DNA from: Actinomycetota bacterium
Lineage (GTDB): Bacteria; Actinomycetota; Acidimicrobiia; IMCC26256; PALSA-610
Direction: 5' to 3'
Assembly (NCBI GenBank): GCA_046727335.1
Contig: JBKPCL010000007.1
Location: forward strand, 1-34,664
DNA: 34,664 nt
Made by a program: the position numbers and the translations under genes. The notes beneath the pieces are model-generated. The model was not told the DNA's origin and made no database searches. It saw only the letters and a list, made by a program, of their open reading frames with translations. Shown piece by piece: positions 1-31,572 of the stretch. Numbering within the stretch: the first letter of the stretch is position 1; each line of letters starts with the position of its first letter.

Positions 1-954
1 GTCGAGCTCGTAGCGCGCGGTCACGAGCGCGTCGAGATCGGCCGCGACCGCGCCCGACGCGATGAACGCCGACGCGGTGCGCCAGTCCTCCGGCTCTTGG
101 CTGTACACGCCGACGATCGAGAGTTCGTGGTGATGGATCGCGTCGGGCGCGACCGGAACTGCGAGGTCCTTGGGAAAGGCGCCGTACAGGACGATGGTCG
201 CCGCGTCATCGGCGAGCGCAAGTCCGAGCTCGAGCGCGCCCGGCGCGCCGGCGGTGATGAAGACGATGTCGTTCGTGCCCGCCCGTGCGCGGGCATCGTC
301 GGGAGTTGCCGTCCACGCCGCCGCCGCGGCTTCGGCGTCGGCTCGCCGCTCCTCGCTCACATCGACGACACCGATGTCGATCGCGCCGAGCGCACGACTC
401 AGGGCGAGATGCAGGCGGCCCATGAACCCACCGCCGATCACGGCGACGCGGTCGCCGGCACGAAAGCCGCCGAGCCGAACCGAGTGCGCAACACACGCGA
501 GCGGTTCGGTCATCGACGCGTGCTCGATCGGCGCGTCGCCGGTCGGGTACGCCTGGGCCGCGGGAGCGATCACGTAGTCGGCGAGACCGGCGCCCATCGA
601 AATGGTGCCGTCCGCCAGCGTGCCACCCTGCGGCTGCTTACACAGCGCGCTGCGGCCGCGCCGGCACGACGAGCAGGTTCCGCAGCGCGTCAACAGGTCG
701 ACTGCAACGGTCGCGCCGATCTGCGGCGACCCTGGGAGCCCGGCAACGGCGTTTCCGACCCCGATGACGCGGCCGGTGACTTCGTGACCGGGCGCGACCG
801 GATAGACCTGCTTCTCACCCAGGAAGAGGCGACGCTCCATCGTGCACAGACCACACGCACCTACCGCGACGAGGACCTCGTCGTCGCCGACGCTGGGGTC
901 GGGTTCGTCGCGCAGCTCGATTGCGCCGGGACCTGTCACGACTGCGACGCGCAT
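1..954 (-). CDS. Zn-dependent medium-chain alcohol/polyol dehydrogenase (3' end runs off window)
   Basis: Hand-translated, absent from the ORF track because no stop falls in the window: MRVAVVTGPGAIELRDEPDP...GACGLCTME...GHE...CGTCSSCRRGRSALC...TEPLACV...VAVIGGGFMG. Shows catalytic Zn ligands (C, GHE, EP), a 4-Cys structural Zn site and a Rossmann GxGxxG. RBS AGGAGG lies upstream of ATG 954. Confidence 0.9.
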   Translation of the reverse strand, partial: MRVAVVTGPGAIELRDEPDPSVGDDEVLVAVGACGLCTMERRLFLGEKQVYPVAPGHEVTGRVIGVGNAVAGLPGSPQIGATVAVDLLTRCGTCSSCRRGRSALCKQPQGGTLADGTISMGAGLADYVIAPAAQAYPTGDAPIEHASMTEPLACVAHSVRLGGFRAGDRVAVIGGGFMGRLHLALSRALGAIDIGVVDVSEERRADAEAAAAAWTATPDDARARAGTNDIVFITAGAPGALELGLALADDAATIVLYGAFPKDLAVPVAPDAIHHHELSIVGVYSQEPEDWRTASAFIASGAVAADLDALVTARYELD

Positions 955-965
955 ACTCCCTCCTG

Positions 966-2375
966 CTACTCCGCGGGCACAACGGGCCACGTCGATCGAG
1001 GTGTGATGCCCGCACGCGCGAACAACGACGCCTGGGTGTCGGCCGCGGCGACGATCAAGTCGTCTTCGTCGATCCGTGTGCACCGACGGTTGCGGACGAC
1101 AACCTCGCCGTTGACGACCACGTCTCGCACGGTGCGACCGTCCGTGCCCCAAACGAGGTGCAACGCGTAATCGCCGCGCGGTGCCCACGTGATGTTTCGA
1201 GTGTCGTGCACCACGATGTCGGCGAGCTTTCCCGGCTCGAGTGAACCGATGCGATCAGCCATTCCGATCGCTTGCGCTCCTCGAATGGTTGCAAGCTCGA
1301 ACGCAGTGCCCGCGCCGAATTTCGTCGGGTCGACGCGCGAGTCGCGGGCGATGCCCGACGCAGCGGCCGCCGCACGCAGGATGTCCGCGAGATCGCCCGC
1401 GTTCGATGCGTCGCACCCCAGGGCGACCCGTCCGCCGCGCTCCACCATCTCGGCGTGGCGGCCCATCCGACACACGCCCTGGCCCAGCCGCAGGTACGCC
1501 CATGGGCAGTACGCCACCGCAGTGCCGCTCGCGAGTACGAGGTCGACCTCCGCATCGTCCAACCACACACCGTGAGCGATCAGGAGATGCTCACCGAGCA
1601 CGCCGAGTCGATCGAGGTGCACGATCGGACGGCAGCCGTGCCGGGCGAGATACTCCTCCGGGTCGGACGACGTCGGCGAGAGATGCATCGTCATTCCCGT
1701 CTGCAGCTCCCGTGCGAGGTCAGCCGCGCCGGTGAGCAACTCGTCGGACGCGAGACTGTGCCCGACCAGCGTCACCCACCCTTCGACGAGACCGCCGGAC
1801 GGCCACATTTCGCACACGTGCCGCTGGCGCTCCAACACTTCGGCTGCGGGCGCGGCGAATGGTGCTTCGTCGATGTCCCAACCCCACGTCCCGATGGTGC
1901 CGCGCACGCCGGCGGTGGTCATGGCCGAGGCGACGCGATCGGGATGCGCGACCGTGCCCGCCTCGACGAGCGTCGTGACGCCATAGCGCAACGCCTCGGC
2001 CGAGGCGAGCAGGGCCGACAGTTCGTCGTCGTCACCGGTGTGGGCGCTGTGCAGCGGCACCGACCACTCGAAGATCGATGCGCCGGGCGGCAGGAGATCG
2101 GGGATGCAGCTCCGAACGAGGGGATCACCCGTGAGGTGCTCGTGCGCGTTCACGAGCCCGGGTGTGACAACGCATCCGCGCGCGTCGAGAACGTCGGCGT
2201 CGGGATACGCCGCACGGAGCTCATGCGTCGAGCCGACGGCGACGATGCGGTCGCCTCGGATGGCAACGGTGCCGCCGACGAGCACCTCTCGGCGCGCGTT
2301 CATGGTCACCACGTCGCCACCGCTCACGAGCAGATCGACAGGCGTGGGATTGTGCTCGGGCGCCGGTTCCTGCAT
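966..2375 (-). CDS. Metal-dependent amidohydrolase (AtzA/TrzN/MTA-SAH deaminase-like fold), paralog 1
   Basis: PGLVNAHEH metal motif, HGVWL, ALGCD, GSLEPGKLADIV. Start placed at MQEPAP (ATG 2375); the longer ORF-track extension overlaps the divergent ALDH. Confidence 0.9.
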   Translation of the reverse strand: MQEPAPEHNPTPVDLLVSGGDVVTMNARREVLVGGTVAIRGDRIVAVGSTHELRAAYPDADVLDARGCVVTPGLVNAHEHLTGDPLVRSCIPDLLPPGASIFEWSVPLHSAHTGDDDELSALLASAEALRYGVTTLVEAGTVAHPDRVASAMTTAGVRGTIGTWGWDIDEAPFAAPAAEVLERQRHVCEMWPSGGLVEGWVTLVGHSLASDELLTGAADLARELQTGMTMHLSPTSSDPEEYLARHGCRPIVHLDRLGVLGEHLLIAHGVWLDDAEVDLVLASGTAVAYCPWAYLRLGQGVCRMGRHAEMVERGGRVALGCDASNAGDLADILRAAAAASGIARDSRVDPTKFGAGTAFELATIRGAQAIGMADRIGSLEPGKLADIVVHDTRNITWAPRGDYALHLVWGTDGRTVRDVVVNGEVVVRNRRCTRIDEDDLIVAAADTQASLFARAGITPRSTWPVVPAE

Positions 2376-2384
2376 GGTCCCGGC

Positions 2385-2466: not shown

Positions 2467-3978
2467 ATGACGCAACTTCGCAGGCCCGGCATCGAGCCGT
2501 CGTGGCTCGCATCGGATCCGTACCCGCAGTGGATCGACGGCGTGGAGCGCCGTGACGGTCCGACGCATGGCGTGCTCGATCCGTCGACCGGTTCGGAGAT
2601 CGCGCGCTGGTCAGAGGCGTCAGGCACGGAGATCGACGACGCGACCGCCGCGGCTCGGCGCACCTTCGACGAGGGCGTCTGGCGTCGAATGCCGCTGGGC
2701 GGCCGCGCCGAAGTACTCGAGCGCGTCGCGCAACGCTTGCGGGACGAGCGCGAGCGGCTTGCCGCGCTCGAGGCGCTCGATACCGGCAAGGCGGTGGGTG
2801 GGGCGATCGTCTACGACTTGTACGAAGCGGCGACAGCGTTCGCATACGCGGCGGGGCTCGCGCGCGACCTGCACGGCGACGTGCGCCGGGCGGCATTCCC
2901 GCCCGAGCTACTCCCGGGCGGCGGACCCTCGGTGTTGACCATGCGGCTGCGCGAGCCCGCCGGCGTGGTGGTGGAGCTCCTGCCGTGGAACGGGCCGCTC
3001 ATGACGGGCAGCCAGCGCATTGCCGTCGCGCTCGCGGCCGGTTGTTCGATCGTCGTGAAGCCGCCCGAGGAAGCGGTGATCAGCGTGCTCGAACTCGCGC
3101 GCATTCTCGCCGAGGCCGGTCTGCCGCCCGGTGTCCTCAACGTCGTGCTCGGGCCCGGCGAAACTGTGGGTGAGCGGCTGGTGGCGGACCCGCGTGTCGA
3201 CCTCATCAGCCTCACGGGAAGTGTCGAAACCGGTGCTCGGGTCATGGAGCTGGCGGCCCGCAACATCACACCGGTGCACCTCGAGTTGGGCGGGAAGTCG
3301 CCCGTGATCGTCTTCGCGGACGCGGATCTCGACGCGGCGGTGTCGTGGGCGATGATGGCCGCGTTCGTCAACATGGGTGAGGTCTGCGTCGCCGGGAGCC
3401 GGCTGCTCGTCGAGACCTCCGTCTATGACGACGTGGTGCGCGGCGTCGCCGATGCCTCGGCGCATTTGCCGATCGGTGATGCACTCGATCCCGAAACGTT
3501 CATCGGTCCGCTCGTCAGCGAACTCCACGCCGATCGGGTGCGCGGGTTCGTCGACCGTTCGCTCGCGAACCGTGACGCCGAGATGGTCGGCGGGGGTTCG
3601 CTCCCTGAAGGCGCGATCCCCACGTTCGTGGCGCCGACCGTGCTCGGACGGGTTCGGCCCGAATCCGAGGTCGCCCAGCGCGAGGTCTTCGGACCCGTGC
3701 TCGCGGCGGCGCCGTTCGCCAACGAGGAAGAGGCGATCGCCCTCGCCAACGGCACGCGCTACGGCCTCAACGCGACCGTCTTCACTCGCGACGTCGAGCG
3801 CGCCTTCCGCATGGCCGACCGCCTCGTGGCCGGCGAGGTCAACATCAATTGTCACTTCGCGCCGGACATGAACGGCGGCCGGGGCGAGCCGCGCAAGGCC
3901 AGCGGCGCGAGCCGCACGGGTGTCGGCGCGTACACCGCGCTCAAAGCCGTCAATGTGCAGACGGCGGCGACGCTCTGA
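2467..3978 (+). CDS. NAD(P)-dependent aldehyde dehydrogenase
   Basis: PWNGP, LTGSVETG, catalytic Glu in LELGGKSP, catalytic Cys in GEVCVAG, EVFGPV. Confidence 0.93.
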   Translation: MTQLRRPGIEPSWLASDPYPQWIDGVERRDGPTHGVLDPSTGSEIARWSEASGTEIDDATAAARRTFDEGVWRRMPLGGRAEVLERVAQRLRDERERLAALEALDTGKAVGGAIVYDLYEAATAFAYAAGLARDLHGDVRRAAFPPELLPGGGPSVLTMRLREPAGVVVELLPWNGPLMTGSQRIAVALAAGCSIVVKPPEEAVISVLELARILAEAGLPPGVLNVVLGPGETVGERLVADPRVDLISLTGSVETGARVMELAARNITPVHLELGGKSPVIVFADADLDAAVSWAMMAAFVNMGEVCVAGSRLLVETSVYDDVVRGVADASAHLPIGDALDPETFIGPLVSELHADRVRGFVDRSLANRDAEMVGGGSLPEGAIPTFVAPTVLGRVRPESEVAQREVFGPVLAAAPFANEEEAIALANGTRYGLNATVFTRDVERAFRMADRLVAGEVNINCHFAPDMNGGRGEPRKASGASRTGVGAYTALKAVNVQTAATL

Positions 3979-5188
3979 CTGGCGCGGCGGCTTTGTTCGT
4001 CCCGAGTGCCTCCACGACGTCCAAGGCGTCGAGGGCGACTTGCAAGGTACGCGCGGCGGCAGGCGACGCCGGGTCGACGCCCAGCAGCTCCCGGATACGT
4101 CCGAGGCGATAGCCGACGGAGTTTCGGTGTATTCCGATGCGTTCAGCCACGCCGGCGCGGCTGCCGTTCGACGCGTACCACGCGCGCAACGTCTGGATGA
4201 GCTCGGCGCGTTCGAGGACCGGACCGAGGAAGGCGTCGATGAACGTCCGCAGCCGTTCCAGCGGTACCGAAAGCAACAGTGCCTGCAGTCCGAGCTCCTC
4301 GTAGGGCAGCACCACCTCGCCGGGACGATTGCGGAGCAGCGCGAGCACCATCTCCGCTTCCCGGAACGACGTTGCTGTCGCCGTCGGACTCGTCACAACC
4401 GGACCACTCGCGCCGAGCACCGGCGCATCACCGACGATGCCTTCGAGGCGGGCCCGGATCCTCCGCAACTCGCCGGCGACGTTGCCGACGAGGACCGTCC
4501 ACCCTCGCTCTTCGTCGTCGTAGACAGGCATCTCGATCCAACGGATCGCTGTATGCCACGTTCGCATGTTCCGCCCGGAGTACAGGAACACCGCTGCGGC
4601 ATGCGGACGGTCGAGGGAGAGTCCGAAGCGACGAGCGGCGCGTATGAGTTGGTCTTCGTTGCGAAACGTGCCGAAGCGAAGTTCCTCGACCAGCCGTACC
4701 GCGCTCTCCGCTCGTGCACTCGCTTCGGCATCGCGCCGGACCGCCTCTATCGCGAGCGGCACCGTCGCGATCTCCATGAGCGCTCGGACCCGCTCGTCCG
4801 CGGGCGCCTCGACGAGTAGGAGACCGACACGGCGCGGGCCGGCGCGCAGGGCCAACGCCGCGGCCTGCATCCCGTCGGTGCAAACGACGTCGGTGATGCC
4901 GTCGCGCGCAAGCGCGCTCCGGGCGACGACGAGCGCCACGCCGCCAGCGAGGCTCTCGGACGCGGGACTTCCCGAGGCGGGCTCGCTCGCGGCGGGCAGC
5001 GCGACGCCGTATTCGCTCGTCGCGAGCAAGCCTCCGTGCACGGCGATGAGGCGCACGATCCGTCCCGTCTCATCGGAGATGCGACGCAGCAAGGCGCCGT
5101 AACCCTCGCCCGAGAGCGCCAACTGCTCGAGGTCGCGCTTGACGTCGGTCAGAGCGGGCCCAAGCGGCCGGGGCGTGTCATGCGCCAC
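3950..5188 (-). CDS. PucR/CdaR-family transcriptional regulator
   Basis: C-terminal HTH TLRAWYASNGSRAGVAERIGIHRNSVGYRLGRIRELLG and a central SFREA-containing domain. Start placed at GTG 5188, 6 nt after GACAAT. Confidence 0.88.
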   Translation of the reverse strand: MAHDTPRPLGPALTDVKRDLEQLALSGEGYGALLRRISDETGRIVRLIAVHGGLLATSEYGVALPAASEPASGSPASESLAGGVALVVARSALARDGITDVVCTDGMQAAALALRAGPRRVGLLLVEAPADERVRALMEIATVPLAIEAVRRDAEASARAESAVRLVEELRFGTFRNEDQLIRAARRFGLSLDRPHAAAVFLYSGRNMRTWHTAIRWIEMPVYDDEERGWTVLVGNVAGELRRIRARLEGIVGDAPVLGASGPVVTSPTATATSFREAEMVLALLRNRPGEVVLPYEELGLQALLLSVPLERLRTFIDAFLGPVLERAELIQTLRAWYASNGSRAGVAERIGIHRNSVGYRLGRIRELLGVDPASPAAARTLQVALDALDVVEALGTNKAAAPVRASPPSAH

Positions 5189-5250
5189 TTCCTCATTGTC
5201 GCGAAACGCGTTCGACACACCGAGCGCAGCACGCGCGCCAGAATCCACGC
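5189..5250. promoter_or_regulatory. Divergent, probably leaderless promoter pair (PucR regulator / acetamidase)
   Basis: Minus-strand GACAAT (5195-5200) is 6 nt from GTG 5188; plus-strand CAGAAT (5239-5244) is 6 nt from GTG 5251. Confidence 0.5.
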
Positions 5251-6309
5251 GTGATCTTGCAGCCGGGTACCGGGCCGATCCGCGGACAGCACTATCTGCA
5301 ATCGACCCCGGACACGGTGTGTTGGGGTGAACTGCCCGCGCGCGACACGGCGCCCGTGCTGTCGGTCGACTCCGGGGACGTCGTGACGATCGACACGGTG
5401 TCGCACGAGGGGATACTGGAGGAGTTCGACCGCGATCCCGTGGCATGGTTCGGGAGTCATGGTGTCCCCAAGAGCGACGTGCTCGTCGACGCCGTCGACA
5501 TCGCGCGTCGTGTCCCGCGCCGCTCCGACATGGGGCCGCACGTCGTCACGGGGCCGATCTCGGTCCGCGAGGCCGAGCCCGGTGATCTGCTCCGGATCGA
5601 TGTGCTCGGCGCCGCGGTGCGCGTGCCGTACGGCGTCATCTCGAGCCGGCATGGTTGGGGAGCGCTCGCGGGGGAGTTCCCCGAGAGCGACGGGCCGACG
5701 TGGGTGTTCACGCGCGTGCACCACGAGCGAGACACCGCCGTCGCGTCGATGGCATTCGGTGGCGGCTCCGGGGCCCGGTTTCCGATCGCGCCGTTCCTCG
5801 GCGTGATGGGCGTCGCGACCGACACCGAGGAGCCGCTGAGCTCGACGCCGCCCGGTCTGCACGCAGGAAACATCGACGTCGCGGCGCTGCAAGCCGGCTC
5901 CTCGCTGTACGTTCCCGTGCAGGTGCGCGGTGGCGCGTTCTATGCCGGCGACCCGCATTTCGCCCAGGGCAACGGCGAGGTGTGCCTGACCGCACTCGAA
6001 GGTTCGTTGCGCGCGGACGTTCGACTGACGGTCCTCAAGGACGACGATGCGCGTCGCGCGGTCGGACTCCTCCGGTACCCGTTCGTGGAGACGGACCAGT
6101 ATTGGATCCCGATCGGCTTGCACGAGGATCTCGACGAGGCGCTGCGCGACTCGGTGCGGCGCGCGATCACGTTTCTCGAAACGGCAATCGGGATGGAGCG
6201 CCACCTCGCCTACGCGTACCTCAGCGCCGCCGCCGACTTCGAGGTCTCGCAGGTCGTCGACATCGTCAAAGGCGTGCATTGCCGGATTCGCAAGTCGGAC
6301 TTCGCCTGA
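5251..6309 (+). CDS. Acetamidase/formamidase family protein
   Basis: GDVVTIDTVSHEG, GPHVVTGPI, AEPGDLLRI, GNID, GDPHFAQGNGEVCLTALE, DFEVSQVVD. Confidence 0.92.
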   Translation: MILQPGTGPIRGQHYLQSTPDTVCWGELPARDTAPVLSVDSGDVVTIDTVSHEGILEEFDRDPVAWFGSHGVPKSDVLVDAVDIARRVPRRSDMGPHVVTGPISVREAEPGDLLRIDVLGAAVRVPYGVISSRHGWGALAGEFPESDGPTWVFTRVHHERDTAVASMAFGGGSGARFPIAPFLGVMGVATDTEEPLSSTPPGLHAGNIDVAALQAGSSLYVPVQVRGGAFYAGDPHFAQGNGEVCLTALEGSLRADVRLTVLKDDDARRAVGLLRYPFVETDQYWIPIGLHEDLDEALRDSVRRAITFLETAIGMERHLAYAYLSAAADFEVSQVVDIVKGVHCRIRKSDFA

Positions 6310-6344: not shown

Positions 6345-7898
6345 TCACCAGCCCTCCGCGCTGCCGACGAGGGCACGCGGATCGGCCGCACCGGCGAGCA
6401 TGTCGTCTTCGACCTCGATCACGTGCACGAGGCCCGCAGCCGTCGTGAACGCGTCGATGACCTCGACGGCGTGGCCGTACTGCGCCAACTGGGTGGCCCA
6501 TTGCCGCGGCGCGTGTGCCTCGATTCGTACTCGCAAGTATTCACGATCGCCCCACAGCGCGAACGGCTGATCGGACGGTGCCGCGAGTGACCATCGAGGC
6601 GCGGCAACCGCGTCGGCGGGCTCCTCACCTCCGTGGAGCAGCCGGGCGAGCAACTGCAGCACGGTCATCGGCTGGTTGTCCGCGCCCATGGTGCCGAGCG
6701 TGAAGTGCGCGCGCCCGCCGTCCGAGGTGACGAGGGTCGGGCAGAGGGTGTGTGGAGGGCGCCGCCGCGGTCCGTACTCGGCGGGATGACCGGGAACAAG
6801 TGAGAAGCCGGTGCCGCGGTTCTGGAGGAACACGCGGATGCCGGGTACGACGAGATGCGCGCCGAAGCCCGCGCAATTCGACTGGGTGAGCGAGACCGCC
6901 ATGCCGTCGGCGACCGCGTTGAGGTGGATCGTGCCGCCTCGCGCCGCCGGCGGCGTCAAAGCCGCGGCGCGATCGGTCTCGATCGCTGCGAGCTGCGAGG
7001 CCAGGCGCTCCGGATCGAGCAGCGCTGCCGGATCGGCGTGCTCGTGCAGGACGTCCACCCGGTCGTGGCCTGCCTGCTTCACCGCCTCGATCAAGAGGTG
7101 CGGCCAGCGCGGATCGTCGGCATCGATCGGCAGCTCGAGGCGCGACGCGGTCCAGGCTGCCGAGAGCGTCACGTAGCCCTGCGAGTTGGGCGGGACCGTC
7201 CAGACGTCGTGATCCCACGCCCGAACGGCGATGGGCTGGACCCAATCCGCGTGCGCGTCGCGCAGGTCGTCGGCCGTGAATTCACCCTGCCCGAGCGCCA
7301 CGAGCGCGGCCGCGAACTCGCCTTCGTACCAAGCGGCCCGACCCCCGTGCGCGATCTCGGTGAGCGCGCGGGCGACACCAGGACGCCGGATCCGCTCGCC
7401 CGCGACGAGGCCCGGCCGGTAGTCGTCGCTGTCGGCGATCCCGGCGATCAGCGCGGCGGAGCGCGCGAGCAACGGCGACGCCGGAAAGCCATCGCGTGCG
7501 TAGGCGATCGCCGGCGCGAGCACGTCGGTGAGCGGAAGCCGTCCGAACCGTTCGTGCAGGGCGCACCACCCGTCGACGCATCCGGGAACGGTGACGGAGC
7601 GAATGTCGCCCCGGTAGGGCATGACGGACGCGCCCGATGCGCGCAATGCGTCGGCGTCGGCGCCCGAACCGGCGCGCCCCGACGCGTTCAGCGCGTACGC
7701 CGAGCCGGAGCCGACATTGACGAGGGCGAAGAGGTCGCCGCCCATCCCGCACATGTGTTGGGCCGTGACCGCGAGCACGGCGTTGGCGGCGATCGCTGCG
7801 TCGACCGCGCTGCCGGCCGCACGCAGCACGGCGACCCCGGCCCCGCTCGCGAGCGCGTCGACGGTCGTCACCATGCCGTGCGGGGCGCGAGCCGTCAC
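6345..7898 (-). CDS. Gamma-glutamyltransferase family Ntn hydrolase (HpxW/YwrD-like)
   Basis: GSAVDAAIAANAVL, CGMGGDLF, VTVPGCVDGW, PPNSQG, probable nucleophile Thr in GGTIHL, LQNRG, PHTL, GAADPR. Start is GTG 7898 or ATG 7874. Confidence 0.9.
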   Translation of the reverse strand: MTARAPHGMVTTVDALASGAGVAVLRAAGSAVDAAIAANAVLAVTAQHMCGMGGDLFALVNVGSGSAYALNASGRAGSGADADALRASGASVMPYRGDIRSVTVPGCVDGWCALHERFGRLPLTDVLAPAIAYARDGFPASPLLARSAALIAGIADSDDYRPGLVAGERIRRPGVARALTEIAHGGRAAWYEGEFAAALVALGQGEFTADDLRDAHADWVQPIAVRAWDHDVWTVPPNSQGYVTLSAAWTASRLELPIDADDPRWPHLLIEAVKQAGHDRVDVLHEHADPAALLDPERLASQLAAIETDRAAALTPPAARGGTIHLNAVADGMAVSLTQSNCAGFGAHLVVPGIRVFLQNRGTGFSLVPGHPAEYGPRRRPPHTLCPTLVTSDGGRAHFTLGTMGADNQPMTVLQLLARLLHGGEEPADAVAAPRWSLAAPSDQPFALWGDREYLRVRIEAHAPRQWATQLAQYGHAVEVIDAFTTAAGLVHVIEVEDDMLAGAADPRALVGSAEGW

Positions 7899-7992
7899 GA
7901 ACGGGACCAGTCGGCGCAGGGGTTCGATCGTACGGGAACGGGTCGTTGGTTGACGGTTCGGTCGCGCCTCTGTATCTTGACCAATCGTCTGA

Positions 7993-8011
7993 TGGTCAGT
8001 CCAACAGACCA
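7993..8011. promoter_or_regulatory. Candidate FadR/GntR operator
   Basis: TGGTC-N9-GACCA inverted repeat containing TGGTCAGTCCA, similar to FadR-subfamily TGGT-N3-ACCA boxes. Lies just after TTGACC (7977-7982) and upstream of the operon that encodes a FadR regulator. Confidence 0.55.
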
Positions 8012-23543: not shown

Positions 23544-24001
23544 CCACGACATCAGCGCCGCCTGAATCGCTCTTCACGCACGTCGCGCTGCCCGTCCGCG
23601 ATCTCGACGCGACGCTCGACTTCTACCGCAAGTACACGACGCTCGAGCTGATCCACGAGCGCACCGACCCCGAGACCGGATTGCGGAGCGTCTGGCTCGC
23701 GAACGCGCGTGACAAGACGGATGCCGCCGCTCGATTCGTTCTGGTGCTGATCTGCGGTCATCTTCCGTCGCAGATCACGGGCGACATCAAAGAGGAGTAC
23801 GGCTTCCTCACGTCGATCAGCCACCTCGGGATCTCGCTCGACTCTCGTGATGACGTCGACCGGATCGCCGCGATGGCGAAGGAGGACGGCATCCTCGTCC
23901 TCGGCCCGCGCTACATGAATCCGGTCGTGGGCTACATCTGCATCGTCCACGATCCCGATGGCAACCAGCTCGAGTTCTCCGTCGAGCAGGTGCTCGGCTG
24001 A
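23540..24001 (+). CDS. VOC family protein
   Basis: FTHVALPVRDL, SHLGISL, GYICIVHDPDGNQLEFS. Confidence 0.88.
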   Translation: MTTTSAPPESLFTHVALPVRDLDATLDFYRKYTTLELIHERTDPETGLRSVWLANARDKTDAAARFVLVLICGHLPSQITGDIKEEYGFLTSISHLGISLDSRDDVDRIAAMAKEDGILVLGPRYMNPVVGYICIVHDPDGNQLEFSVEQVLG

Positions 24002-25398
24002 TGGCGCTCGAACTGGTCGACCTTCTCGTCGAGGGCTCACACGTCGTCACGATGAACGAACGGCGTGAGGTGCTGCTCGATGGTGCGGTTGCAGTGCGCG
24101 GCAGCGAGATCGTCGCGATCGGACCGCGCGCCGACGTCGCTGCTCGAGTCGATCCGCGCGAGCGGGCCGGTGGCGCAGGGTTCGTCGTCACGCCCGGCAT
24201 GGTGAACGCGCACATCCATGTGACGGGAGAGCCACTGACCCGGGGATTCGTTCCCGACGACACGCCGTTCGAAGAGAACGTCTTCGAGTGGCTCGTGCCG
24301 CTCTACTCGGTGTACACCGAAGAGGAGGAGCGCCTCTCCGCAGAGCTCGCTGCCGCGGAACTGTTGAAGTCGGGATGCACGTCGTTCCTCGAGGCGGGGA
24401 CGGTGCGCTTCGTCGACGCCGTCGTCGACGGCCTCGTCGAGATCGGGATCCGCGCTCGGGTCGGCAAGTGGGTCTGGGACCTCCCGCCCGAGCCGGCGGT
24501 GTACCGGCAGTCGACCGCCGACGCGATCGAGAACCTCGAGCGCACCTTGCGCGACCACCGGTCCGTCGCCGATGGCCGCATCCAAGCGTGGTCGATGATC
24601 GTGGGGCACACGACGTGCAGTGACGAGCTCTGGCGCGCGGCCAAGGAAGCGGCTGATCGATGGGAGACCGGTCTCAACTTCCACATGTCGCCGGCCGCGA
24701 TCGATCCCGAGGCGTTCCTCGCCCAGTTCGGCCAGCGACCGGTCGAACACCTCGCGGAGATCGGAGTGCTCGGCCCGAACGTCGTGCTGGTGCACTGCGT
24801 CCACGTCGACGACAACGAGATCAAGCTGCTCGCACACCACGAGTGCAGCGTGGCGCACTGCCCGACTACGGCGCTGAAGGTGAGCTACGGAGTCACTCAG
24901 CTCGGCAAGATGCCGGAGATGCGCGCGGCCGGCGTCAATGTCGCGATCGGAACCGACGGCAACAACGCATCGAACTACTCCGACATGATGCGCGCGACCT
25001 ATCTCGTCGCAGGTCTCTTCAAGGACGCACGGCGCGACCCGACGATGTTTCCGGCCGAGGTCGCGTACGAGATGGCGACGCTCGGTGGTGCCCGGGCAAT
25101 ACTCGCCGAGCGGGAGATCGGCTCGCTCGAAGTCGGCAAGAAGGCAGACCTCGTGCTGCACGACCGCGGGCGCCCCGAGTGGACGCCCCTCCTCAATGTC
25201 GCCAACCAGCTCGTGTGGTCCGCCGATGGTCGGGGCGTTCATAGCGTCTTCGTCGACGGCCGCAAGGTCGTCGACCGCTACCGACTGGTCACCGTGGACG
25301 AGGATGCGCTCTACCGGCGCGCGCAGTCAGCTGGTGAAGCCATCGTCGCTCGCACCGGCCTGCCCGATCGCGCGAAGTGGCCGACGGTGACATCGTGA
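24001..25398 (+). CDS. Metal-dependent amidohydrolase, paralog 2
   Basis: PGMVNAHIH, HCVH, AIGTDG, GSLEVGKKADL; clearly homologous to 966-2375. Confidence 0.92.
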   Translation: MALELVDLLVEGSHVVTMNERREVLLDGAVAVRGSEIVAIGPRADVAARVDPRERAGGAGFVVTPGMVNAHIHVTGEPLTRGFVPDDTPFEENVFEWLVPLYSVYTEEEERLSAELAAAELLKSGCTSFLEAGTVRFVDAVVDGLVEIGIRARVGKWVWDLPPEPAVYRQSTADAIENLERTLRDHRSVADGRIQAWSMIVGHTTCSDELWRAAKEAADRWETGLNFHMSPAAIDPEAFLAQFGQRPVEHLAEIGVLGPNVVLVHCVHVDDNEIKLLAHHECSVAHCPTTALKVSYGVTQLGKMPEMRAAGVNVAIGTDGNNASNYSDMMRATYLVAGLFKDARRDPTMFPAEVAYEMATLGGARAILAEREIGSLEVGKKADLVLHDRGRPEWTPLLNVANQLVWSADGRGVHSVFVDGRKVVDRYRLVTVDEDALYRRAQSAGEAIVARTGLPDRAKWPTVTS

Positions 25399-26054
25399 TC
25401 GTCTTCGATCCCGCGGAACACGAGCCGGCACGCTCGCAGGGAGTGTTGTCGCAACTCGTCGCGCCACGGCCGATCGCGATGATCTCCACGGCCGACGCCG
25501 ACGGAGTGACGAACGTCGCGCCGTTCAGCTACTACATGCCGATCACTGGTCGGCCGATGCTCGTCGCGGTGAGCATGGGCTTGCGCGAATCCGACGGACA
25601 GCCCAAGCACACGTTCGAGAACGCGACACGGTGCGGAGACTTCGTGATCAACGTCACCGCTTCTTCGTTCCGCGATCACATCGAGACCGCCGCGATTGAA
25701 TTTCCCCGCGGCACGAGCGAGCTCGACGCGGTCGGATGGACGACGGTCCCGTCGGTCAAGGTCTCGTCGCCCTCGATTGCGGAATCGCCGGCGCACCTGG
25801 AATGCCGCATCCATCGCGTGATTCCGCTCGGCGGCGACGACGTGCCCTTCTCAGAGGTGAACCTGGTCGTCGGCGAGGTGGTCTGCGTCGTGCTCGACGA
25901 GTCGATCAGCACACCCGACTACCGCATCGATATCCGCGACCTCGGCCTCATCGGGCGCTTGGGCTTCCCGTGGTTCACGGCGACGGGCGAATCGATGTTC
26001 GAACTCCCACGTCAGACGTACACGGAGTACCAGCAACAGGGGAGCGCGGGATGA
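25395..26054 (+). CDS. Flavin reductase-like FMN-binding split-barrel protein
   Basis: VAPRPIAMIST, NVAPFSYY, KHTFEN, FVINV, ESPAHLEC, GRLG. GTGA overlap with the previous stop. Confidence 0.87.
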   Translation: MIVFDPAEHEPARSQGVLSQLVAPRPIAMISTADADGVTNVAPFSYYMPITGRPMLVAVSMGLRESDGQPKHTFENATRCGDFVINVTASSFRDHIETAAIEFPRGTSELDAVGWTTVPSVKVSSPSIAESPAHLECRIHRVIPLGGDDVPFSEVNLVVGEVVCVVLDESISTPDYRIDIRDLGLIGRLGFPWFTATGESMFELPRQTYTEYQQQGSAG

Positions 26055-26518
26055 CAGCGCGTGAGGCGAGCGATAAATGGTGGGCGCACATCAACCACCA
26101 GTTCAGCTCTCATGTTCGGGAAGAGTCGGCGTTCCTCGAGCAATACGAGGAACTCGCGGGCGAGGTCGGCGACGCGGGAGTCGAGTTCCTGCTCCAGCTC
26201 ATTCTCGACGACGAGCGACGCCACCACGCACTTTTCGAGGACATGATGGAAGCGGCGAGAGACGGCAGCAGCGCTGTGCCCGCCGCGCCGGCTCCGGCCA
26301 CCGCGAGTGCGCGCCGGCTGCTGGAACCCACGGAACGATTCCTGCAGGCGGAGCGGGAGGACCAGGCGCAACTCCGGCGCTTGCGCAAGGAGCTCAAGCC
26401 TGCTCGCGACGACACGCTCTGGCCGCTCCTTGTTGAGCTCATGCAGATCGACACGGAGAAGCACATTCGGATTCTCGAGTACTTGCATCGCCGATTGCAG
26501 AACGCCGTGAAGGGCTGA
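26051..26518 (+). CDS. Ferritin-like four-helix protein
   Basis: ATG 26051 overlaps the previous stop; REE...DDERRH...AERED...DTEKH carboxylate/His pattern. Confidence 0.65.
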   Translation: MTAREASDKWWAHINHQFSSHVREESAFLEQYEELAGEVGDAGVEFLLQLILDDERRHHALFEDMMEAARDGSSAVPAAPAPATASARRLLEPTERFLQAEREDQAQLRRLRKELKPARDDTLWPLLVELMQIDTEKHIRILEYLHRRLQNAVKG

Positions 26519-26521: not shown

Positions 26522-27550
26522 ATGCAGTATCGCGTCCTCGGTCGCACCGGTATCTCGGTCAGCACGTACTGCCTCGGGACGATGATGTTCGGCGCCTGGG
26601 GAAATCCCGACGTCGACGAGTGCGTCGCGATGGTGGGTGCCGCGCTCGGCGCCGGCATCAACTTCCTCGACACCGCCGACGTGTACGACCACGGCGTCTC
26701 GGAAGAGATTCTCGGGCGGGCGCTGCGCGGTCGCCGCGACGAAGTTGTGCTCGCGACCAAGTTCAACAACCCGATGGGCGAGGATCCGAACATGGGGGGA
26801 AACTCGCGGCGCTGGATCGTGCGCGCCGCCGAGGATTCCCTGCGCCGGCTCGGCACCGACTGGATCGACCTCTACCAGGTGCACCGCCCCGATCCCGCGA
26901 CCGACATCGACGAGACGCTCGGTGCGCTCAGCGACCTCGTGCATTCCGGGAAGGTGCGCGCGATCGGTACGTCGACGTTTCCCGCCGAGCTCATCGTCGA
27001 AGCTCAGTGGGTCTCCGAGCGCCGCGCCCGCGAGCGATTCGCGACCGAACAGCCGCCGTATTCGATCCTGGCTCGCGGCGTCGAAGCGGCTGTGTTGCCG
27101 GCTTGTCTCAGGCACGGCGTCAGCGTGCTGGCCTGGGCGCCCCTCAACGGCGGATGGCTCACCGGGAAATACGGCCGGTCGGTCGCTCCCGAGGGATCGC
27201 GCGCGGCGCGGGAGCCGGACCACTTCGACTTCGGCGGACCCGTGCACGACCGGAAGCTCGCTGCCGTCGAGCAGCTGACGAAGGTCGCCGACGCCGCCGG
27301 TCTTCGTCTCATCGACATGGCCCATGCGTTCGTGTTGGCCCATCCCGCGGTGACCGCGGCCATCATCGGGCCGAGAACGCTCGAGCAACTGCGCGATGTT
27401 CTTGTCGATGCCGATACCGCGCTGCCGGACGACGTGCTCGACGAGATCGACGCGATCGTTCCCCCCGGCGCGCAACTCAACCCGGCGGACGCCGGTTGGA
27501 CGTCACCCGCGCTCGCCGATCCCCAAGCACGCCGAAGGAGGTCGAACTGA
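26522..27550 (+). CDS. Aldo/keto reductase
   Basis: LGTMMFG, DTADVY, ATKF, DLYQVH, GKVRAIGTS, QPPYS, IIGPRT. Confidence 0.95.
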   Translation: MQYRVLGRTGISVSTYCLGTMMFGAWGNPDVDECVAMVGAALGAGINFLDTADVYDHGVSEEILGRALRGRRDEVVLATKFNNPMGEDPNMGGNSRRWIVRAAEDSLRRLGTDWIDLYQVHRPDPATDIDETLGALSDLVHSGKVRAIGTSTFPAELIVEAQWVSERRARERFATEQPPYSILARGVEAAVLPACLRHGVSVLAWAPLNGGWLTGKYGRSVAPEGSRAAREPDHFDFGGPVHDRKLAAVEQLTKVADAAGLRLIDMAHAFVLAHPAVTAAIIGPRTLEQLRDVLVDADTALPDDVLDEIDAIVPPGAQLNPADAGWTSPALADPQARRRRSN

Positions 27551-28716
27551 TGGCCGTCATCGATCAGGACCTCGCTCATCGTGTCGAACGGCGGCGCGCC
27601 GCGCGCGACCAGTTCCGAACGCCGGCGCGAGGGCCGCTCGCCACCGACCTGCTCCAACCCGATGAGGTGTACGACCAGGATCTCTTCGACCTCGAGATGC
27701 TGCGCGTCTTCGCACGCTCGTGGATCTGGCTCGGCGACACGGAAGACCTCTGCCGGCCTGGCGACTACATCACCGGCCAGATCGGCTTCCAGCCCGTCTT
27801 CGTCGTGCGGCAGGCCGACGGCGGCTTGCAAGGATTCCTGAACTCCTGCCGGCATCGGGCCTCGCCCGTCGCGTACGGCGACGCCGGTCACTGCGCGAAG
27901 TCGTTCACGTGTCCCTACCATTCCTGGACGTACGCCCACGACGGCACACTCCTCAGCGTCCCCGACCGTCGTCGCATGTACGGTCGTGACTTCAGGCTCG
28001 AGGACTACGGCCTCGTCGAGATCCGCGTCGGTGTGCTCTTCGACAAGCTGGTCTTCGGATGCTTGTCACGCCGCCAGGTGTCACTTGAAGAGTGGTGGGC
28101 GCCCTTGCTGCCGCGCTACGAGCGATACGGCTTCGACACGTTCACGCGCTTCGATCGGGATCTCGACGGTGTGTACCCGATCAATTGGAAAGCGTTCATG
28201 GAGAACTCGAACGACGACTATCACGTCCGCTTCGTCCACGCCCGCTTGAACTTCATGATCAAGCGGGTCGAGACGACCTTCGAGGTCGAAGGACGGTGTT
28301 GCAGCGGCTACAAGCCATCGGCGGAAGGCTTCGACGGCACGGGGGGCCGGACGGACCTTCCCGAGAAGGACCTCGAAGGCTTCTATGCCGACGCCGTGTA
28401 TCCGAACCTGAGCCCGCTGCCCAGCCCGACCGAGCTGTGGATGGTTCGTGCCGACCCGATCGCACCCGATCGGACCAGGTTGTTCTCACGCGTCTACGGC
28501 CTGAACAAGAGCCTCGAGGAGCAGGAGTTCACGCTCGAGAACCTCGAGATGACCAACATCGAAGACACGGAGATGGTCGCCAAGACGATGCGGAACCTGC
28601 GCTCGCCGCTGTACGCCGTCGGGCCGGCCTCGAAATGGGAGACGCGCGCGGTGCACATCGATCGTCTCGTCCGCGCCGACGTGGAGACGCCGCTCGCCGA
28701 CGACGAGTTCATCTGA
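27550..28716 (+). CDS. Rieske non-heme iron oxygenase alpha subunit 2
   Basis: TGATG overlap at 27550; NSCRHR...CPYHSW; NWKAFMENSNDDYHVRFVH; distal ED. Confidence 0.92.
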   Translation: MAVIDQDLAHRVERRRAARDQFRTPARGPLATDLLQPDEVYDQDLFDLEMLRVFARSWIWLGDTEDLCRPGDYITGQIGFQPVFVVRQADGGLQGFLNSCRHRASPVAYGDAGHCAKSFTCPYHSWTYAHDGTLLSVPDRRRMYGRDFRLEDYGLVEIRVGVLFDKLVFGCLSRRQVSLEEWWAPLLPRYERYGFDTFTRFDRDLDGVYPINWKAFMENSNDDYHVRFVHARLNFMIKRVETTFEVEGRCCSGYKPSAEGFDGTGGRTDLPEKDLEGFYADAVYPNLSPLPSPTELWMVRADPIAPDRTRLFSRVYGLNKSLEEQEFTLENLEMTNIEDTEMVAKTMRNLRSPLYAVGPASKWETRAVHIDRLVRADVETPLADDEFI

Positions 28717-28731: not shown

Positions 28732-29511
28732 TCAGGCGCCGTGGACCGCCTCGCGCAGACGCGTCACCAGAGCGGTCGGATCCGGCGAGCCCCAGACGTT
28801 GCGACCAAAGGCGATGCCGGCGGCACCGGCCGCGACGACGCCGCGTGCGAGCGCGACAACGTCGTCCTCGGATGCCATCTTCGGTCCGCCCAGCGCGACA
28901 ACGGGCACCGGGCACGCCTCGACCACTGCGGTGAACTCCTCGGGTTCGCCCGGGCAGACGGTCTTCACGATGTCGGCCCCGAGCTCGACCGCGATGCGCG
29001 CGGCCCGGGCGACGTTCTCGATCGTCCAGTCGATGCTCTTCGCCCAGCCGCCCGGGATCGCCTCGGCCATGACGGGCAAGCCGAGCTGCTCACACTCCGA
29101 AGCGAGACGCGCGAGCCGCTGCAGCGACTTCTCCTCGTCGGGAGAACCGGGAAACACGAGGAGCACGACGGCGTCGGCGCCGATCGAGATCGCTTCCTCG
29201 GCTCGGTGCAGGATGGCCGACACGTCAGAGCTTGCGAAGTCGCCGAGCTCGGAGACGCCGCCGTCGACGCGCAGGACGAGACCGCAGTCGGCAAACGTGT
29301 CGGCGTGTGATCGAGCAAGGTTCCACGTCGCGAGGATGCCGTCGGGACGGCCGGCCGCGATCGCCTGCATGGCGTCGAGCGGCGGACCGGCGCCCATGTA
29401 GGCCGCGTGGTCGATCGCTACGAGGCAGGAGCGACCGTCGGCGCGGATCACGCGGCGGAAGCGGCGCGTCTTGGCGGCAGCGATCGCCGAGCTCGGAATG
29501 GTCTCTTTCAC
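28732..29511 (-). CDS. Class I aldolase, DhnA/FbaB/LsrF family
   Basis: AIDH, GADAV, Schiff-base Lys in ELGADIVKT, LGGPK, GIAFGRNVW. Confidence 0.87.
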   Translation of the reverse strand: MKETIPSSAIAAAKTRRFRRVIRADGRSCLVAIDHAAYMGAGPPLDAMQAIAAGRPDGILATWNLARSHADTFADCGLVLRVDGGVSELGDFASSDVSAILHRAEEAISIGADAVVLLVFPGSPDEEKSLQRLARLASECEQLGLPVMAEAIPGGWAKSIDWTIENVARAARIAVELGADIVKTVCPGEPEEFTAVVEACPVPVVALGGPKMASEDDVVALARGVVAAGAAGIAFGRNVWGSPDPTALVTRLREAVHGA

Positions 29512-29918
29512 TGGTGCCTCGCAGTATTGAGCTGACGTTCGAATTCTGTCCCATCCCAGTAATCCACGCGGTGCGCGATCACGCCGCGCTCGACCCGGAA
29601 GCGAAACATGCCCCGCAGTCGGACCGGATGCGCTCCAGCGTCGTCGCGCACGGTGCAGGTCATGATGTACGGCACCGCGACCCGGTCCGAGTCGACGATG
29701 AAGTCTTCGGCCTCGTAGCGGAGATCGTCGAACCGGGCGAGGAACTCAGGAAGGCGCGCGCGATACGCGTCGCGACCGCGAACTGTAGTGCCGAGCGCCG
29801 ACGTGTGCTCGTTCACGAAGTCGACCGCAACGCAGTCCACAGCGGCGTCGACGTCATGTCGATTCAATGCAGCGAGATAGCGCTCGACGACGTCGCGCGC
29901 GCTCTCGCGCGGCGTCAC
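29508..29918 (-). CDS. SnoaL-like / NTF2-fold protein
   Basis: GTG 29918 overlaps the VOC stop; VVERYLAALNRHD, RGRDAY, FRVERGVIAHRVDYWD. Confidence 0.83.
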   Translation of the reverse strand: MTPRESARDVVERYLAALNRHDVDAAVDCVAVDFVNEHTSALGTTVRGRDAYRARLPEFLARFDDLRYEAEDFIVDSDRVAVPYIMTCTVRDDAGAHPVRLRGMFRFRVERGVIAHRVDYWDGTEFERQLNTARHQ

Positions 29919-30385
29919 CTCGCTTCGCCCCAAAGCTCTCGAATCGTCGAGAACACCTTCTGGTTCCACGAGAACTCGATGACGTTTCCGTCGGGATCCT
30001 TGGCCGCGCAGATGTAGCCGATGTGCGGCGCCATCTGGCGCGGTTCCCAGCTGAGGCATCCCATCTCGCGTGCTCGCTCCGCGATCGCATCGACGTCTTC
30101 TTTGTTGGGCAGTTCGATTCCGATATGGGCGAAGGGAGAGAGGGTCGGATGCGGCTCGCCCGGCTCCTGTCCGAACTGGCGCGCCATGTCGGGCACGAAC
30201 TCGGCGATCACGAGTACGAAGGGGTCCTCGACCTGCTTCTCGTTCGACAGCCACGCGCCGCGGCCGGTCTCGTCTTCGTTCTGGGCGACGACGACGAGCG
30301 GCGTGAGCTTTGTGAAGAACTCGATCGAGCGCTCGAGGTTGCTCACCGGTAGCGCGACGTGCGTCCAACGCGGTTGCGTCAGCAT
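29915..30385 (-). CDS. VOC family protein
   Basis: WTHVALPVSNL, AHIGIEL, GYICAAKDPDGNVIEFS; RBS AGGAG. Confidence 0.88.
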   Translation of the reverse strand: MLTQPRWTHVALPVSNLERSIEFFTKLTPLVVVAQNEDETGRGAWLSNEKQVEDPFVLVIAEFVPDMARQFGQEPGEPHPTLSPFAHIGIELPNKEDVDAIAERAREMGCLSWEPRQMAPHIGYICAAKDPDGNVIEFSWNQKVFSTIRELWGEAR

Positions 30386-30396
30386 GATCTCTCCTC

Positions 30397-31572
30397 CTAC
30401 GCGAACTCGTCGGCGGCGAGTGGCGTCGCGACGTCGTTGCGAACGTTGCGCATGAAATGTGCGGCGCGTCCCTCCCAGGTGGTGGGCGGCCCGACGCGGT
30501 AGAACGGCGAGTGGAGATTGCGCATGAGCTCCGTCACCATGTTGGTGTCTTCCTCGTTGGTCTTGGCGAGCGTGTCGAGCTGTTCCTCTTGCTCGTCGAG
30601 TGGCGTGTCCAGTCCGTAGATGCGCGAGAACAGACGGATGCGGTCCGGTGCGAGAGGGTCGGCTCGCACGAGGATGAGCTGGGTGGGATAGGGCAGCGGG
30701 GTCAGGTTGGGAAAGATGAAGTCGGCGTAGTGGCCGGTCAGCTCCTCCTCGGGTAGATCATCGCGGCCGCCCCTCGGATCGTCGACCTCGAGCTTGTGCG
30801 GCTTGTACCCGCTGCAGGTGCGACCTTCGTAGCGGACGATCGTGTCGAGCTGGCGCCGACGATCGTTCATCCGCCGGTGCACGAAGCGAACGTGGTAATC
30901 GTCGTTCGAGTTCTCGCAGAACGCCTTCCAATTGATCGGATACTCCTGATCGAGATCTCGATGGAAGCGCGTGAACTTCTCGAAGCCGTATCGGTCGTAG
31001 CGTTCGGCGAGCGGCGCGATCCATTCGCGGAACGACGGCGCCTTGTGCGACAAGCACCCGAAGATGAGCTTGTTCCAGGCAACCTCGACACGGATCGGGA
31101 CCAGTCCGTAGTCCTCGTGCGGCAACCCTTCCGGATACATGCGAGGTTCGTCCGGCACGCCGATGAGCCGGCCGTCGATCGCGTACGCCCAGTTGTGGTA
31201 CGGGCACGTGAGGGTTCGTCCGCAATGGCCGGCTGCCTCCGACGACAGACCTGAGGCGCGGTGGCGGCAGTTGTTCAAGAAGCCCTTCACCGAGCCGTCC
31301 TGCTGGCGGATGACGATGACGGACTGCATGCCGATGGTCCCGGTGAGGAAGTCGCCCGGTTGCCGGAGGTCCTCCGTGTCGCCCAGCCACACCCAGGCTC
31401 GGCCGAAGACCCGGATCATCTCCAGATCGAAGAGGTCCTGGTCGTACACCTCCCAGGGCTGGAGCATGGGCGTCTCGAGCGGGGACGACACGAGCCCCGA
31501 TGTCTCAGCCAGTCGGTGGGCGCGCCGTTCATCGACACGGTCGAAGAGCAGCGCTTCGTCGGGCATGCGCAT
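30397..31572 (-). CDS. Rieske non-heme iron oxygenase alpha subunit 3 (paralog of 27550-28716)
   Basis: NNCRHR...CPYHNW; NWKAFCENSNDDYHVRFVH; EED. Confidence 0.92.
   Translation of the reverse strand: MRMPDEALLFDRVDERRAHRLAETSGLVSSPLETPMLQPWEVYDQDLFDLEMIRVFGRAWVWLGDTEDLRQPGDFLTGTIGMQSVIVIRQQDGSVKGFLNNCRHRASGLSSEAAGHCGRTLTCPYHNWAYAIDGRLIGVPDEPRMYPEGLPHEDYGLVPIRVEVAWNKLIFGCLSHKAPSFREWIAPLAERYDRYGFEKFTRFHRDLDQEYPINWKAFCENSNDDYHVRFVHRRMNDRRRQLDTIVRYEGRTCSGYKPHKLEVDDPRGGRDDLPEEELTGHYADFIFPNLTPLPYPTQLILVRADPLAPDRIRLFSRIYGLDTPLDEQEEQLDTLAKTNEEDTNMVTELMRNLHSPFYRVGPPTTWEGRAAHFMRNVRNDVATPLAADEFA

Follow-up and report, generated by a model that had tools for sequence, protein, structure and literature searches.

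The window analysed here, a stretch of 34,664 nucleotides, is the entire contig C7 (JBKPCL010000007.1) of one metagenome-assembled genome (MAG) of an uncultured actinomycetote of the class Acidimicrobiia (G000; 2.43 Mb in 232 contigs, 70.6% complete). Thirty of its 33 genes, at positions 1–31572, were assigned to a gene cluster that includes a HyuA/HyuB pair (HyuAB), a BMP-type ATP-binding cassette (ABC) importer and three Rieske oxygenases. The cluster is very probably real, coherent and widely conserved, a catabolic supercluster that acts on an N-heterocycle. As its substrate we tentatively propose a compound of the flavin, lumazine or pteridine type that contains a uracil-like ring, which is the likeliest single candidate.

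An earlier note on this DNA, made from the sequence letters, had described about 30 co-located genes as an uncharacterised catabolic system for an N-heterocycle, a lactam or a modified nucleoside. The N-heterocycle or lactam part of that description holds, and the neighbourhood is conserved as reported below, while the modified nucleoside is not supported, as the window encodes no nucleosidase, phosphorylase or kinase. Further support for an N-heterocycle comes from two TRZ/ATZ deaminase homologs and from a molybdenum hydroxylase of the xanthine dehydrogenase (XDH) family in a paralogous BMP/Rieske locus.

Conservation and modular layout

Genes were chosen by third-position G+C and then scanned against Pfam and NCBIfam. 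The G+C content lies between 62 and 71% along the window, and its relatives are Acidimicrobiia and Acidimicrobiales MAGs. Of the sequencing runs listed as containing parts of it, none was of RNA, and those of DNA had at most 0.15 of the sampled words in common with it. Twenty genes form a run on one strand (8040–28716), with overlaps at 11 of the 19 junctions and a widest gap of 105 bp, in agreement with the same-strand run that the note had pointed out.

Relatives of HyuB were sought in one genome per species and 419 were found; locus counts refer to the best 80 of these (72–87% identity) and are lower bounds, because contig ends cut many of the loci. HyuA accompanies HyuB at 73 of the 80 loci, the coenzyme A (CoA) ligase at 60, the cupin at 53, the Rieske oxygenase g13 at 49, the VOC protein g07 at 43, the BMP protein at 41 and the GntR regulator at 40. 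Gene order is kept across almost the full window in genome G258, over most of it in G007 and from g07 to g21 in G005. Because synteny is seen in these three genomes and across the 80 loci, the clustering is not due to chance; the homologs are not scattered, which was the check that the note had proposed. Of the 63 genomes in the family to which the window belongs, 4 have the cluster, and these come from four genera, so that its distribution there is patchy.

Two layouts recur. Type A is the layout of Acidimicrobiia, with the order VOC-GntR-cupin-HyuAB-(CoA ligase)-Rieske-BMP ABC transporter-medium-chain dehydrogenase/reductase (MDR)-O-methyltransferase-amidohydrolase. Type B occurs in Streptomyces, Embleya, Streptosporangium and Sphaerimonospora, with the order aldo-keto reductase (AKR) / Rieske (g28 type)-VOC-SnoaL-aldolase-HyuAB-CoA ligase, and so joins the right-arm genes (AKR, g28-type Rieske, VOC, SnoaL and aldolase) straight to HyuAB and the CoA ligase. 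At one Streptomyces type-B locus (L030:4038–7735, the sole type-B locus scanned for this region), a 2-oxoacid:ferredoxin oxidoreductase (750 and 366 residues) and a 128-residue 4Fe-4S ferredoxin lie between the aldolase and HyuA; these could supply electrons to the Rieske oxygenase or oxidise a 2-oxoacid-like intermediate.

Left-arm genes are rare beside HyuB: the GGT-like gene is found at 1 of the 80 loci, PucR and the alcohol dehydrogenase (ADH) at 2 each and the aldehyde dehydrogenase (ALDH) at 3. In G051 and G073, which belong to another family of the same order, ADH, g02, the FmdA-like gene and the GGT-like gene occur with a flavin reductase, a g13-like Rieske oxygenase, AKR and a BMP transporter, at loci without HyuAB. 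Since these two genomes group left-arm genes with BMP importer, flavin reductase and AKR genes, the left arm does belong to the cluster. The cluster is made of three modules with overlapping membership, and therefore the whole 31 kb is linked.

A paralogous locus, L103 (G005 contig C13, 3581–16713), contains three g13-like Rieske oxygenases, an XDH-family molybdenum hydroxylase, a g13b-like VOC protein and a second BMP ABC transporter. The XDH-family hydroxylase is also found at loci L052 and L019.

The HyuAB pair

The genes hyuA (g10, 9630–11723, + strand) and hyuB (g11, 11720–13306, + strand) stand in the A-then-B, two-gene arrangement given in the available part of PMC5214803. HyuA (697 residues) contains Hydantoinase_A with its N- and C-terminal domains, HyuB (528 residues) matches Hydantoinase_B with 480 bits, and both lengths are Hyd-like. 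HyuA scores 366 bits against N-methylhydantoinase (7hk5) and 349 bits against the caprolactamase subunit CapA (6yra_A), compared to 159–214 bits for carboxylase subunits. The corresponding values for HyuB are 179 bits (7hk5), 140 bits (6yra_B) and 46–61 bits. A gene of the Acetone_carb_G type, for a gamma subunit, was not found in the window; the small gene upstream encodes a cupin. Sequence comparison thus places HyuAB in the hydrolytic branch, with N-methylhydantoinase and caprolactamase as closer relatives than the carboxylases.

At the level of single residues the picture is more mixed. ATP-site residues of HyuA are kept (D15, T19, D22, K37, D294, G297 and T298). In CapB, as described in the accessible part of PMC8453981, a metal is held by the tetrad Asp41-His99-Asp102-His124, of which His99 is called fully conserved. 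The equivalent residues of HyuB are D40, Q100, D103 and H125, so that three of the four ligands are kept; the glutamine at the His99 site is invariant in 80 of 80 orthologs. The same source gives CapA Asp302 as conserved, with a lysine as its counterpart in the alpha-prime subunit of acetophenone carboxylase. HyuA has Lys301 at this site, and the lysine recurs without exception (72 of 72 orthologs). The likeness to N-methylhydantoinase and CapAB therefore covers subunit order, lengths, top sequence matches, ATP-site residues and three metal ligands, whereas Gln100 for His99, Lys301 for Asp302 and the flanking cupin and CoA ligase genes set the window apart.

Because both changes are invariant among the orthologs, the Gln100/Lys301 HyuAB is best described as a distinct subfamily. 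It probably works like an ATP-dependent lactamase, yet is no standard member of that group, because two published conserved residues are changed.

Riboflavin association and rival explanations

The importer is encoded by g14–g17 (16401–21496, + strand), comprising a binding protein (g14, 16401–17606), an ATPase (17610–19229) and two permeases (19335–20522 and 20519–21496), as assigned from domain scans, orthologs and, for g14, a predicted model and fold search. The binding protein matches Pfam Bmp with 85.8 bits. Its model has a confident core, with which PnrA, Lbp, RfuA and BmpD align at TM scores of 0.73–0.76 (normalised by target length). RfuA, a member of the PnrA/BMP family, binds riboflavin, so that the fold can serve as a riboflavin receptor; in TP0298, riboflavin is contacted by Y27, N82, Y157 and W189 (PMC3573665, available part). 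The spirochete importer RfuABCD described there resembles the window system in having a BMP/PnrA-fold binding protein, one ATPase and two permeases, and occurs in hosts without riboflavin synthesis.

A link to flavins is suggested by the neighbourhood of ribF. At L024, L027, L028 and L082 this gene precedes VOC-GntR-cupin-HyuAB on the same strand, and at L029 it lies nearby; L082 is from a Dormibacterota MAG, with a gap of 147 bp between ribF and the cluster. In G031 the arrangement is ribF-GntR-BMP-ABC, the transporter, 64–65% identical to that of the window, and its GntR gene being directly downstream of ribF. The ribF gene adjacent to the cluster or transporter is the sole copy in two genomes and one of two copies in four others. 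On contig C5 of the window genome (L118), two convergent ribF paralogs (flavin adenine dinucleotide synthetase/riboflavin kinase) lie side by side at 4057–4986 (+) and 5120–5761 (−), and two copies are also present in G005, G031, G464 and G465.

Carriers of the cluster also tend to lack the final part of riboflavin synthesis, for which lumazine synthase (RibH) and riboflavin synthase (RibE) are needed. In the family of G367 RibH is absent in 39 of 44 carriers vs 11 of 37 non-carriers (odds ratio 18), an association that Fisher values overstate because related genomes are not independent samples. Five chromosome-level carriers have neither RibH (0/5) nor RibE (0/5), and all have RibA (5/5). RibH is likewise missing in 9 of 10 further type-A carriers and, in the window's own family, in 2 of 4 carriers vs 5 of 59 non-carriers and in 4 of 6 genomes with a close BMP ortholog. 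Four of the five RibH-scoring carriers in the family of G367 (G373, G403, G438 and G446) have only low dimethylribityllumazine (DMRL) synthase scores, 95–122 bits vs the usual ~190, and this type may be a paralog with another role. RibB (dihydroxybutanone phosphate (DHBP) synthase) persists as a stand-alone gene where genomes of the window's family lack RibH and RibE, and is missing from four other carriers, a pattern that favours neither auxotrophy nor a bypass. RibB-like loci were seen at G007:C1:1691618–1692190 (outside the rib operon of G007) and on G031:C2, G002:C106 and G000:C119. The riboflavin transporter PnuX was found in none of five genomes, and S-components of energy-coupling factor (ECF) transporters gave weak matches in G031, G002 and G020, with no complementary pattern. 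The residue variants of HyuAB and the flavin association are both new, and both are testable.

Comparable chemistry is known from the lumichrome (lum) cluster of Nocardioides simplex, together with RcaE of Microbacterium, which is an analogue at the family level only. As given in the available part of PMC12746152, this reconstituted riboflavin/lumichrome pathway opens a pyrimidine(dione) ring, hydrolyses ureido and amidine groups, oxidises alcohols and aldehydes and uses Rieske attack and extradiol-type cleavage; a cupin hydratase and a retro-aldolase take part, and four genes serve transport. The window goes beyond this description in having HyuAB, a CoA ligase, an O-methyltransferase, an MDR protein and a SnoaL-like protein, and its Rieske oxygenases come without beta subunit, ferredoxin or reductase. 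Other Hyd-branch lactamases act on N-heterocycles in the iaa system (indoleacetate, Aromatoleum), with a CoA ligase, and in the skt system (skatole, Rhodococcus ruber), with Rieske oxygenases. These two differ from the window in accessory genes, host and transporter; the window has no B12 mutase, and its Rieske enzymes have no beta subunit. The caprolactam, skatole, indoleacetate and hpx systems are partial precedents. A one-to-one mapping was found for no described pathway, the lum pathway as presented in that source included, which bears out the note's statement that the cluster matched none. Neither outcome that the note said would speak against the system was encountered, because synteny is kept and such a mapping is lacking. 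Literature searches returned nothing on the gene combination of the window and, for hydantoinase with indoleacetate, CoA ligase or oxindole, work on acetophenone carboxylase only.

A more specific form of the flavin reading is rather unlikely, though worth stating: riboflavin or another flavin would be degraded or turned over by an undescribed route centred on the flavin importer of Acidimicrobiia that are riboflavin auxotrophs, and the Gln100/Lys301 HyuAB would open the isoalloxazine pyrimidinedione with ATP. These could even be the genes of the C-ring-first pathway of Pseudomonas RF. That strain, now lost, is said to have degraded riboflavin in the 1960s with ribityl-dimethylquinoxalinedione, urea and oxalamide as products.

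A number of observations weigh against a flavin as the substrate. Nucleoside receptors, RfuA and AtzT fit the g14 model about equally well (TM 0.67–0.76, 16–23% identity), RfuA having 17% identity in the structural alignment, no better than the nucleoside receptors; the best sequence match of g14 is PnrA, with just 45 bits, and the BMP protein of most type-A clusters is merely 28–35% identical to g14. The fold search was accordingly dropped as a guide to ligand class, as it did not discriminate between ligands. Only a minority of the loci (5 of 80) have ribF next to the cluster, and both ribF genes of the window genome are on another contig. RibH is present in the carriers G007, G258 and G456 and in 5 of 5 cultured type-B carriers. 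Degrading a flavin would be odd for a vitamin auxotroph. Rfam gave no match over the full window at E values up to 1, and hence neither a flavin mononucleotide (FMN) nor a xanthine riboswitch. The P450 LumU, the xanthine oxidase-type LumJ, the thiamine diphosphate-dependent decarboxylase LumK/L and the four-component Rieske system LumABCD, all from the part of PMC12746152 available, are absent among the window proteins. With g21 as query, 103 genomes of the genus Nocardioides gave six weak matches (30–35% identity), and three inspected flanks showed no orthology to the window. Finally, as Lys301 of HyuA corresponds to the alpha-prime lysine of acetophenone carboxylase, a non-hydrolytic reaction is possible.

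The same gene logic of import, oxygenation, ATP-driven ring opening, deamidation and CoA activation would serve a different N-heterocycle, the flavin signals then being indirect or coincidental. Candidates are purine and pyrimidine bases, methylated purines, carboxylates of the pyridone or oxindole type, creatinine, hydantoins and betaine-derived lactams. We regard such a substrate as possible. Solved BMP proteins bind nucleosides and AtzT shares their fold; the deaminase homologs most resemble deaminases of adenosine analogues and of 8-oxoguanine; CntA and Stc2-type enzymes come nearest to g13, and the CoA ligase has carnitine-CoA ligase as its top, sub-cut-off match. Purines are oxidised by the hpxDE-encoded enzymes of Klebsiella, whose hpxW is given as an oxamate amidohydrolase (PMC7373994, PMC12625717, available parts). 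Among solved structures, N-methylhydantoinase is closest to HyuAB, but the two differ at both catalytic positions tested. Such a substrate would, moreover, explain neither why ribF adjacency recurs across phyla nor why carriers have lost RibH and RibE. Genes for a nucleoside phosphorylase, hydrolase or kinase, for uricase and for the allantoin pathway are missing from the window, as is a xanthine riboswitch.

Two further explanations are improbable in our judgement. HyuAB could be an ATP-dependent carboxylase or another phosphoryl-transfer enzyme whose acid product is then activated with CoA, as benzoylacetate-CoA ligase follows acetophenone carboxylase. The invariant Lys301, where hydrolases have Asp, and the replacement of the metal ligand His99 are consistent with this, as is the CoA ligase directly after hyuB at 60 of 80 loci, a layout shared with the apc operon in the available part of PMC5214803; the small cupin, whose gene overlaps the hyuA start, could be an accessory subunit. 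The far higher similarity of both subunits to hydrolases argues against a carboxylase, as do the absent gamma subunit, the Hyd-like lengths, the type-B clusters without a cupin match and the nearby deaminases and amidases, which suit amide chemistry. The 31 kb could also be a mosaic of separate small operons for different substrates, brought together only by shared ancestry in one family. Left-arm genes are indeed rare beside HyuB outside that family, there are two regulators, modules occur apart (HyuAB is missing in G051 and the transporter in type B), and no shared operator was found in the window. However, the modules share members (BMP in two, AKR in two, HyuAB with the CoA ligase in two) and recombine in distant lineages, and the central 20 genes are one packed same-strand run. 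A single supercluster, with a flavin, lumazine or pteridine-type compound as the tentative substrate, is the reading followed below.

Gene content and proposed route

Every gene class named in the earlier note (BMP importer, three Rieske oxygenases, HyuA/B, amidohydrolases, amidase, GGT-like hydrolase, CoA ligase, oxidoreductases, aldolase and regulators) was confirmed by Pfam or NCBIfam. Its inventory had overlooked four VOC proteins, an O-methyltransferase, a cupin, a SnoaL-like protein, a flavin reductase and a 155-residue protein. Two of the four VOC genes, g13b and g27b, are newly recognised and occupy apparent intergenic gaps. None of the proteins scanned reached an NCBIfam equivalog cut-off. 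The catalytic motifs of the Rieske, amidohydrolase and GGT proteins are all intact.

The left arm begins with g01 (1–954, − strand), a Zn-dependent alcohol dehydrogenase of the MDR type (ADH_N and ADH_zinc_N), whose 3′ end is lost at the contig end; its orthologs are 77% identical in G007 and 69% in G051, where the gene adjoins the BMP module. It is followed by g02 (966–2375, −), a deaminase-like TRZ/ATZ-type amidohydrolase (Amidohydro_1) with an HEH motif, which has 5′-deoxyadenosine deaminase as its top NCBIfam match (238 bits, under the cut-off), a 71% identical ortholog in G051 and a counterpart at 8 of the 80 loci. The aldehyde dehydrogenase g03 (2467–3978, +; Aldedh, 462 bits) is 80% identical to its G007 ortholog. 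The PucR-family regulator g04 (3950–5446, −) contains HTH_30 and GGDEF_2 and is 65% and 55% identical to its counterparts in G007 and G258. The FmdA/AmdA-family amidase g05 (5251–6309, +; FmdA_AmdA, 106 bits) has orthologs in G258 (80%) and G051 (59%), and many type-A clusters are preceded by paralogs of ~32% identity, which occur at 13 of the 80 loci. The last left-arm gene, g06 (6345–7874, −), encodes a GGT-like N-terminal nucleophile hydrolase (G_glu_transpept, 331 bits) with a GGTIH motif; its orthologs are 68% identical in G007, and 59% in G051 and 61% in G073, where both adjoin flavin reductase and BMP genes.

The long operon opens with the VOC/glyoxalase protein g07 (8040–8525, +; Glyoxalase, 49 bits), followed by the GntR/FCD regulator g08 (8529–9248, +; GntR and FCD domains), a type of regulator that also adjoins an orphan BMP transporter in G031 and G002. 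A palindrome, TGACCAATCGTCTGATGGTCA (7978–7998), lies in the divergent promoter region between the GGT and VOC genes and is a candidate GntR site, unrepeated elsewhere in the window. The motif GGTCWGACC was rejected as a GntR operator, as it showed no enrichment (five one-mismatch matches vs about ten expected). The operator search of the window gave no match to TGGTNNNACCA, and no palindrome is common to its intergenic regions.

The cupin g09 (9272–9637, +; Cupin_2) overlaps the start of hyuA by 8 bp. Downstream of HyuAB, the AMP-binding acyl-CoA ligase g12 (13303–14841, +), which has carnitine-CoA ligase as its top NCBIfam match, precedes the Rieske oxygenase g13 (14838–16001, +; Rieske and Ring_hydroxyl_A), an alpha subunit only. 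Its best match in the PDB is CntA, with 128 bits over residues 20–216 only. The small VOC protein g13b (16019–16387, +) has orthologs in G258 (80%) and on contig C13 of G005 (72%).

Beyond the importer lie g18 (21505–22536, +), a quinone-oxidoreductase-like MDR protein found at 29 of 80 loci; g19 (22533–23543, +), an O-methyltransferase-family protein with Methyltransf_2 and Dimerisation domains (15 of 80 loci at 35–48% identity); the VOC/glyoxalase protein g20 (23540–24001, +), 88% identical to its G007 ortholog; and g21 (24001–25398, +), a second TRZ/ATZ-type amidohydrolase (12 of 80 loci) with the methylthioadenosine/S-adenosylhomocysteine (MTA/SAH) deaminase 4f0r as its best PDB match (180 bits). 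The flavin reductase g22 (25377–26054, +; Flavin_Reduct, 83 bits) adjoins GGT and BMP genes in G007, G051 and G073. A conserved 155-residue protein, g23 (26051–26518, +), has orthologs in G005, G007 and G258; its only matches, to ferritin-like and phenol-hydroxylase-like proteins, are sub-threshold. It may be a small di-iron protein, because it contains ERRH and EKH motifs. The run ends with the aldo-keto reductase g24 (26522–27550, +; 20 of 80 loci, including type-B clusters; 69% in G051) and the Rieske alpha subunit g25 (27550–28716, +), assigned from domain scans and motifs and related to g28.

The right arm is on the opposite strand and comprises the DeoC/DhnA-type class I aldolase g26 (28732–29511, −; 17 of 80 loci), the SnoaL-like protein g27 (29508–29918, −; 31 of 80 loci), the VOC/glyoxalase protein g27b (29915–30385, −; 88% in G258) and the Rieske alpha subunit g28 (30397–31572, −; 18 of 80 loci), which heads type-B clusters. 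The place of g27b corresponds to that of the VOC gene between Rieske and SnoaL in type-B clusters, a match of position, as g27b itself was not used as a query there. The lone Rieske gene of G007 is 82% identical to g28 and 65% to g25. All three Rieske proteins, g13, g25 and g28, have the CxH...CxxH cluster motif and the mononuclear iron motif, and the Pfam scan found no Ring_hydroxyl_B subunit among the window proteins. To the right of the cluster (31758–34663) lie genes for endonuclease V, an L,D-transpeptidase (Big_10 and YkuD) and a phosphoesterase fragment, which are apparently unrelated.

The route proposed for the cluster is conditional in each of its steps and was drawn up from the observed gene content, the synteny, the placement and residues of HyuAB, and the association with ribF and riboflavin loss. 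The BMP-type ABC system would import the compound, which alpha-only Rieske enzymes, reduced via the flavin reductase, would hydroxylate or relieve of an alkyl side chain; N-dealkylation by these enzymes is something we infer only. ADH and ALDH would oxidise the Rieske products. The HyuAB variant would spend ATP on opening a cyclic amide or ureide ring that is thermodynamically stable. The FmdA-like amidase, the GGT-like hydrolase and both deaminase-type amidohydrolases would then strip nitrogen from amidine, ureido and small amide groups, and the CoA ligase would activate the ring-derived carboxylate. The remaining Rieske and VOC proteins, the cupin, the SnoaL-like protein, AKR and the class I aldolase may dismantle the carbon skeleton and any polyol side chain, with GntR and PucR as the likely regulators.

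Cofactor catabolism is barely mapped. According to the available part of PMC12746152, only the catabolic pathways of vitamin B6, NAD and riboflavin are well characterised, and variants probably exist. The chemistry of HyuAB may differ from that of the known lactamases and carboxylases, and the presence of its subfamily in cultured Streptomyces, Embleya and Streptosporangium makes it an accessible enzyme, whatever its substrate. If the cluster handles flavins, it would represent a second, non-homologous route, widespread in uncultured Acidimicrobiia of soil and water and tied to vitamin auxotrophy and cross-feeding.

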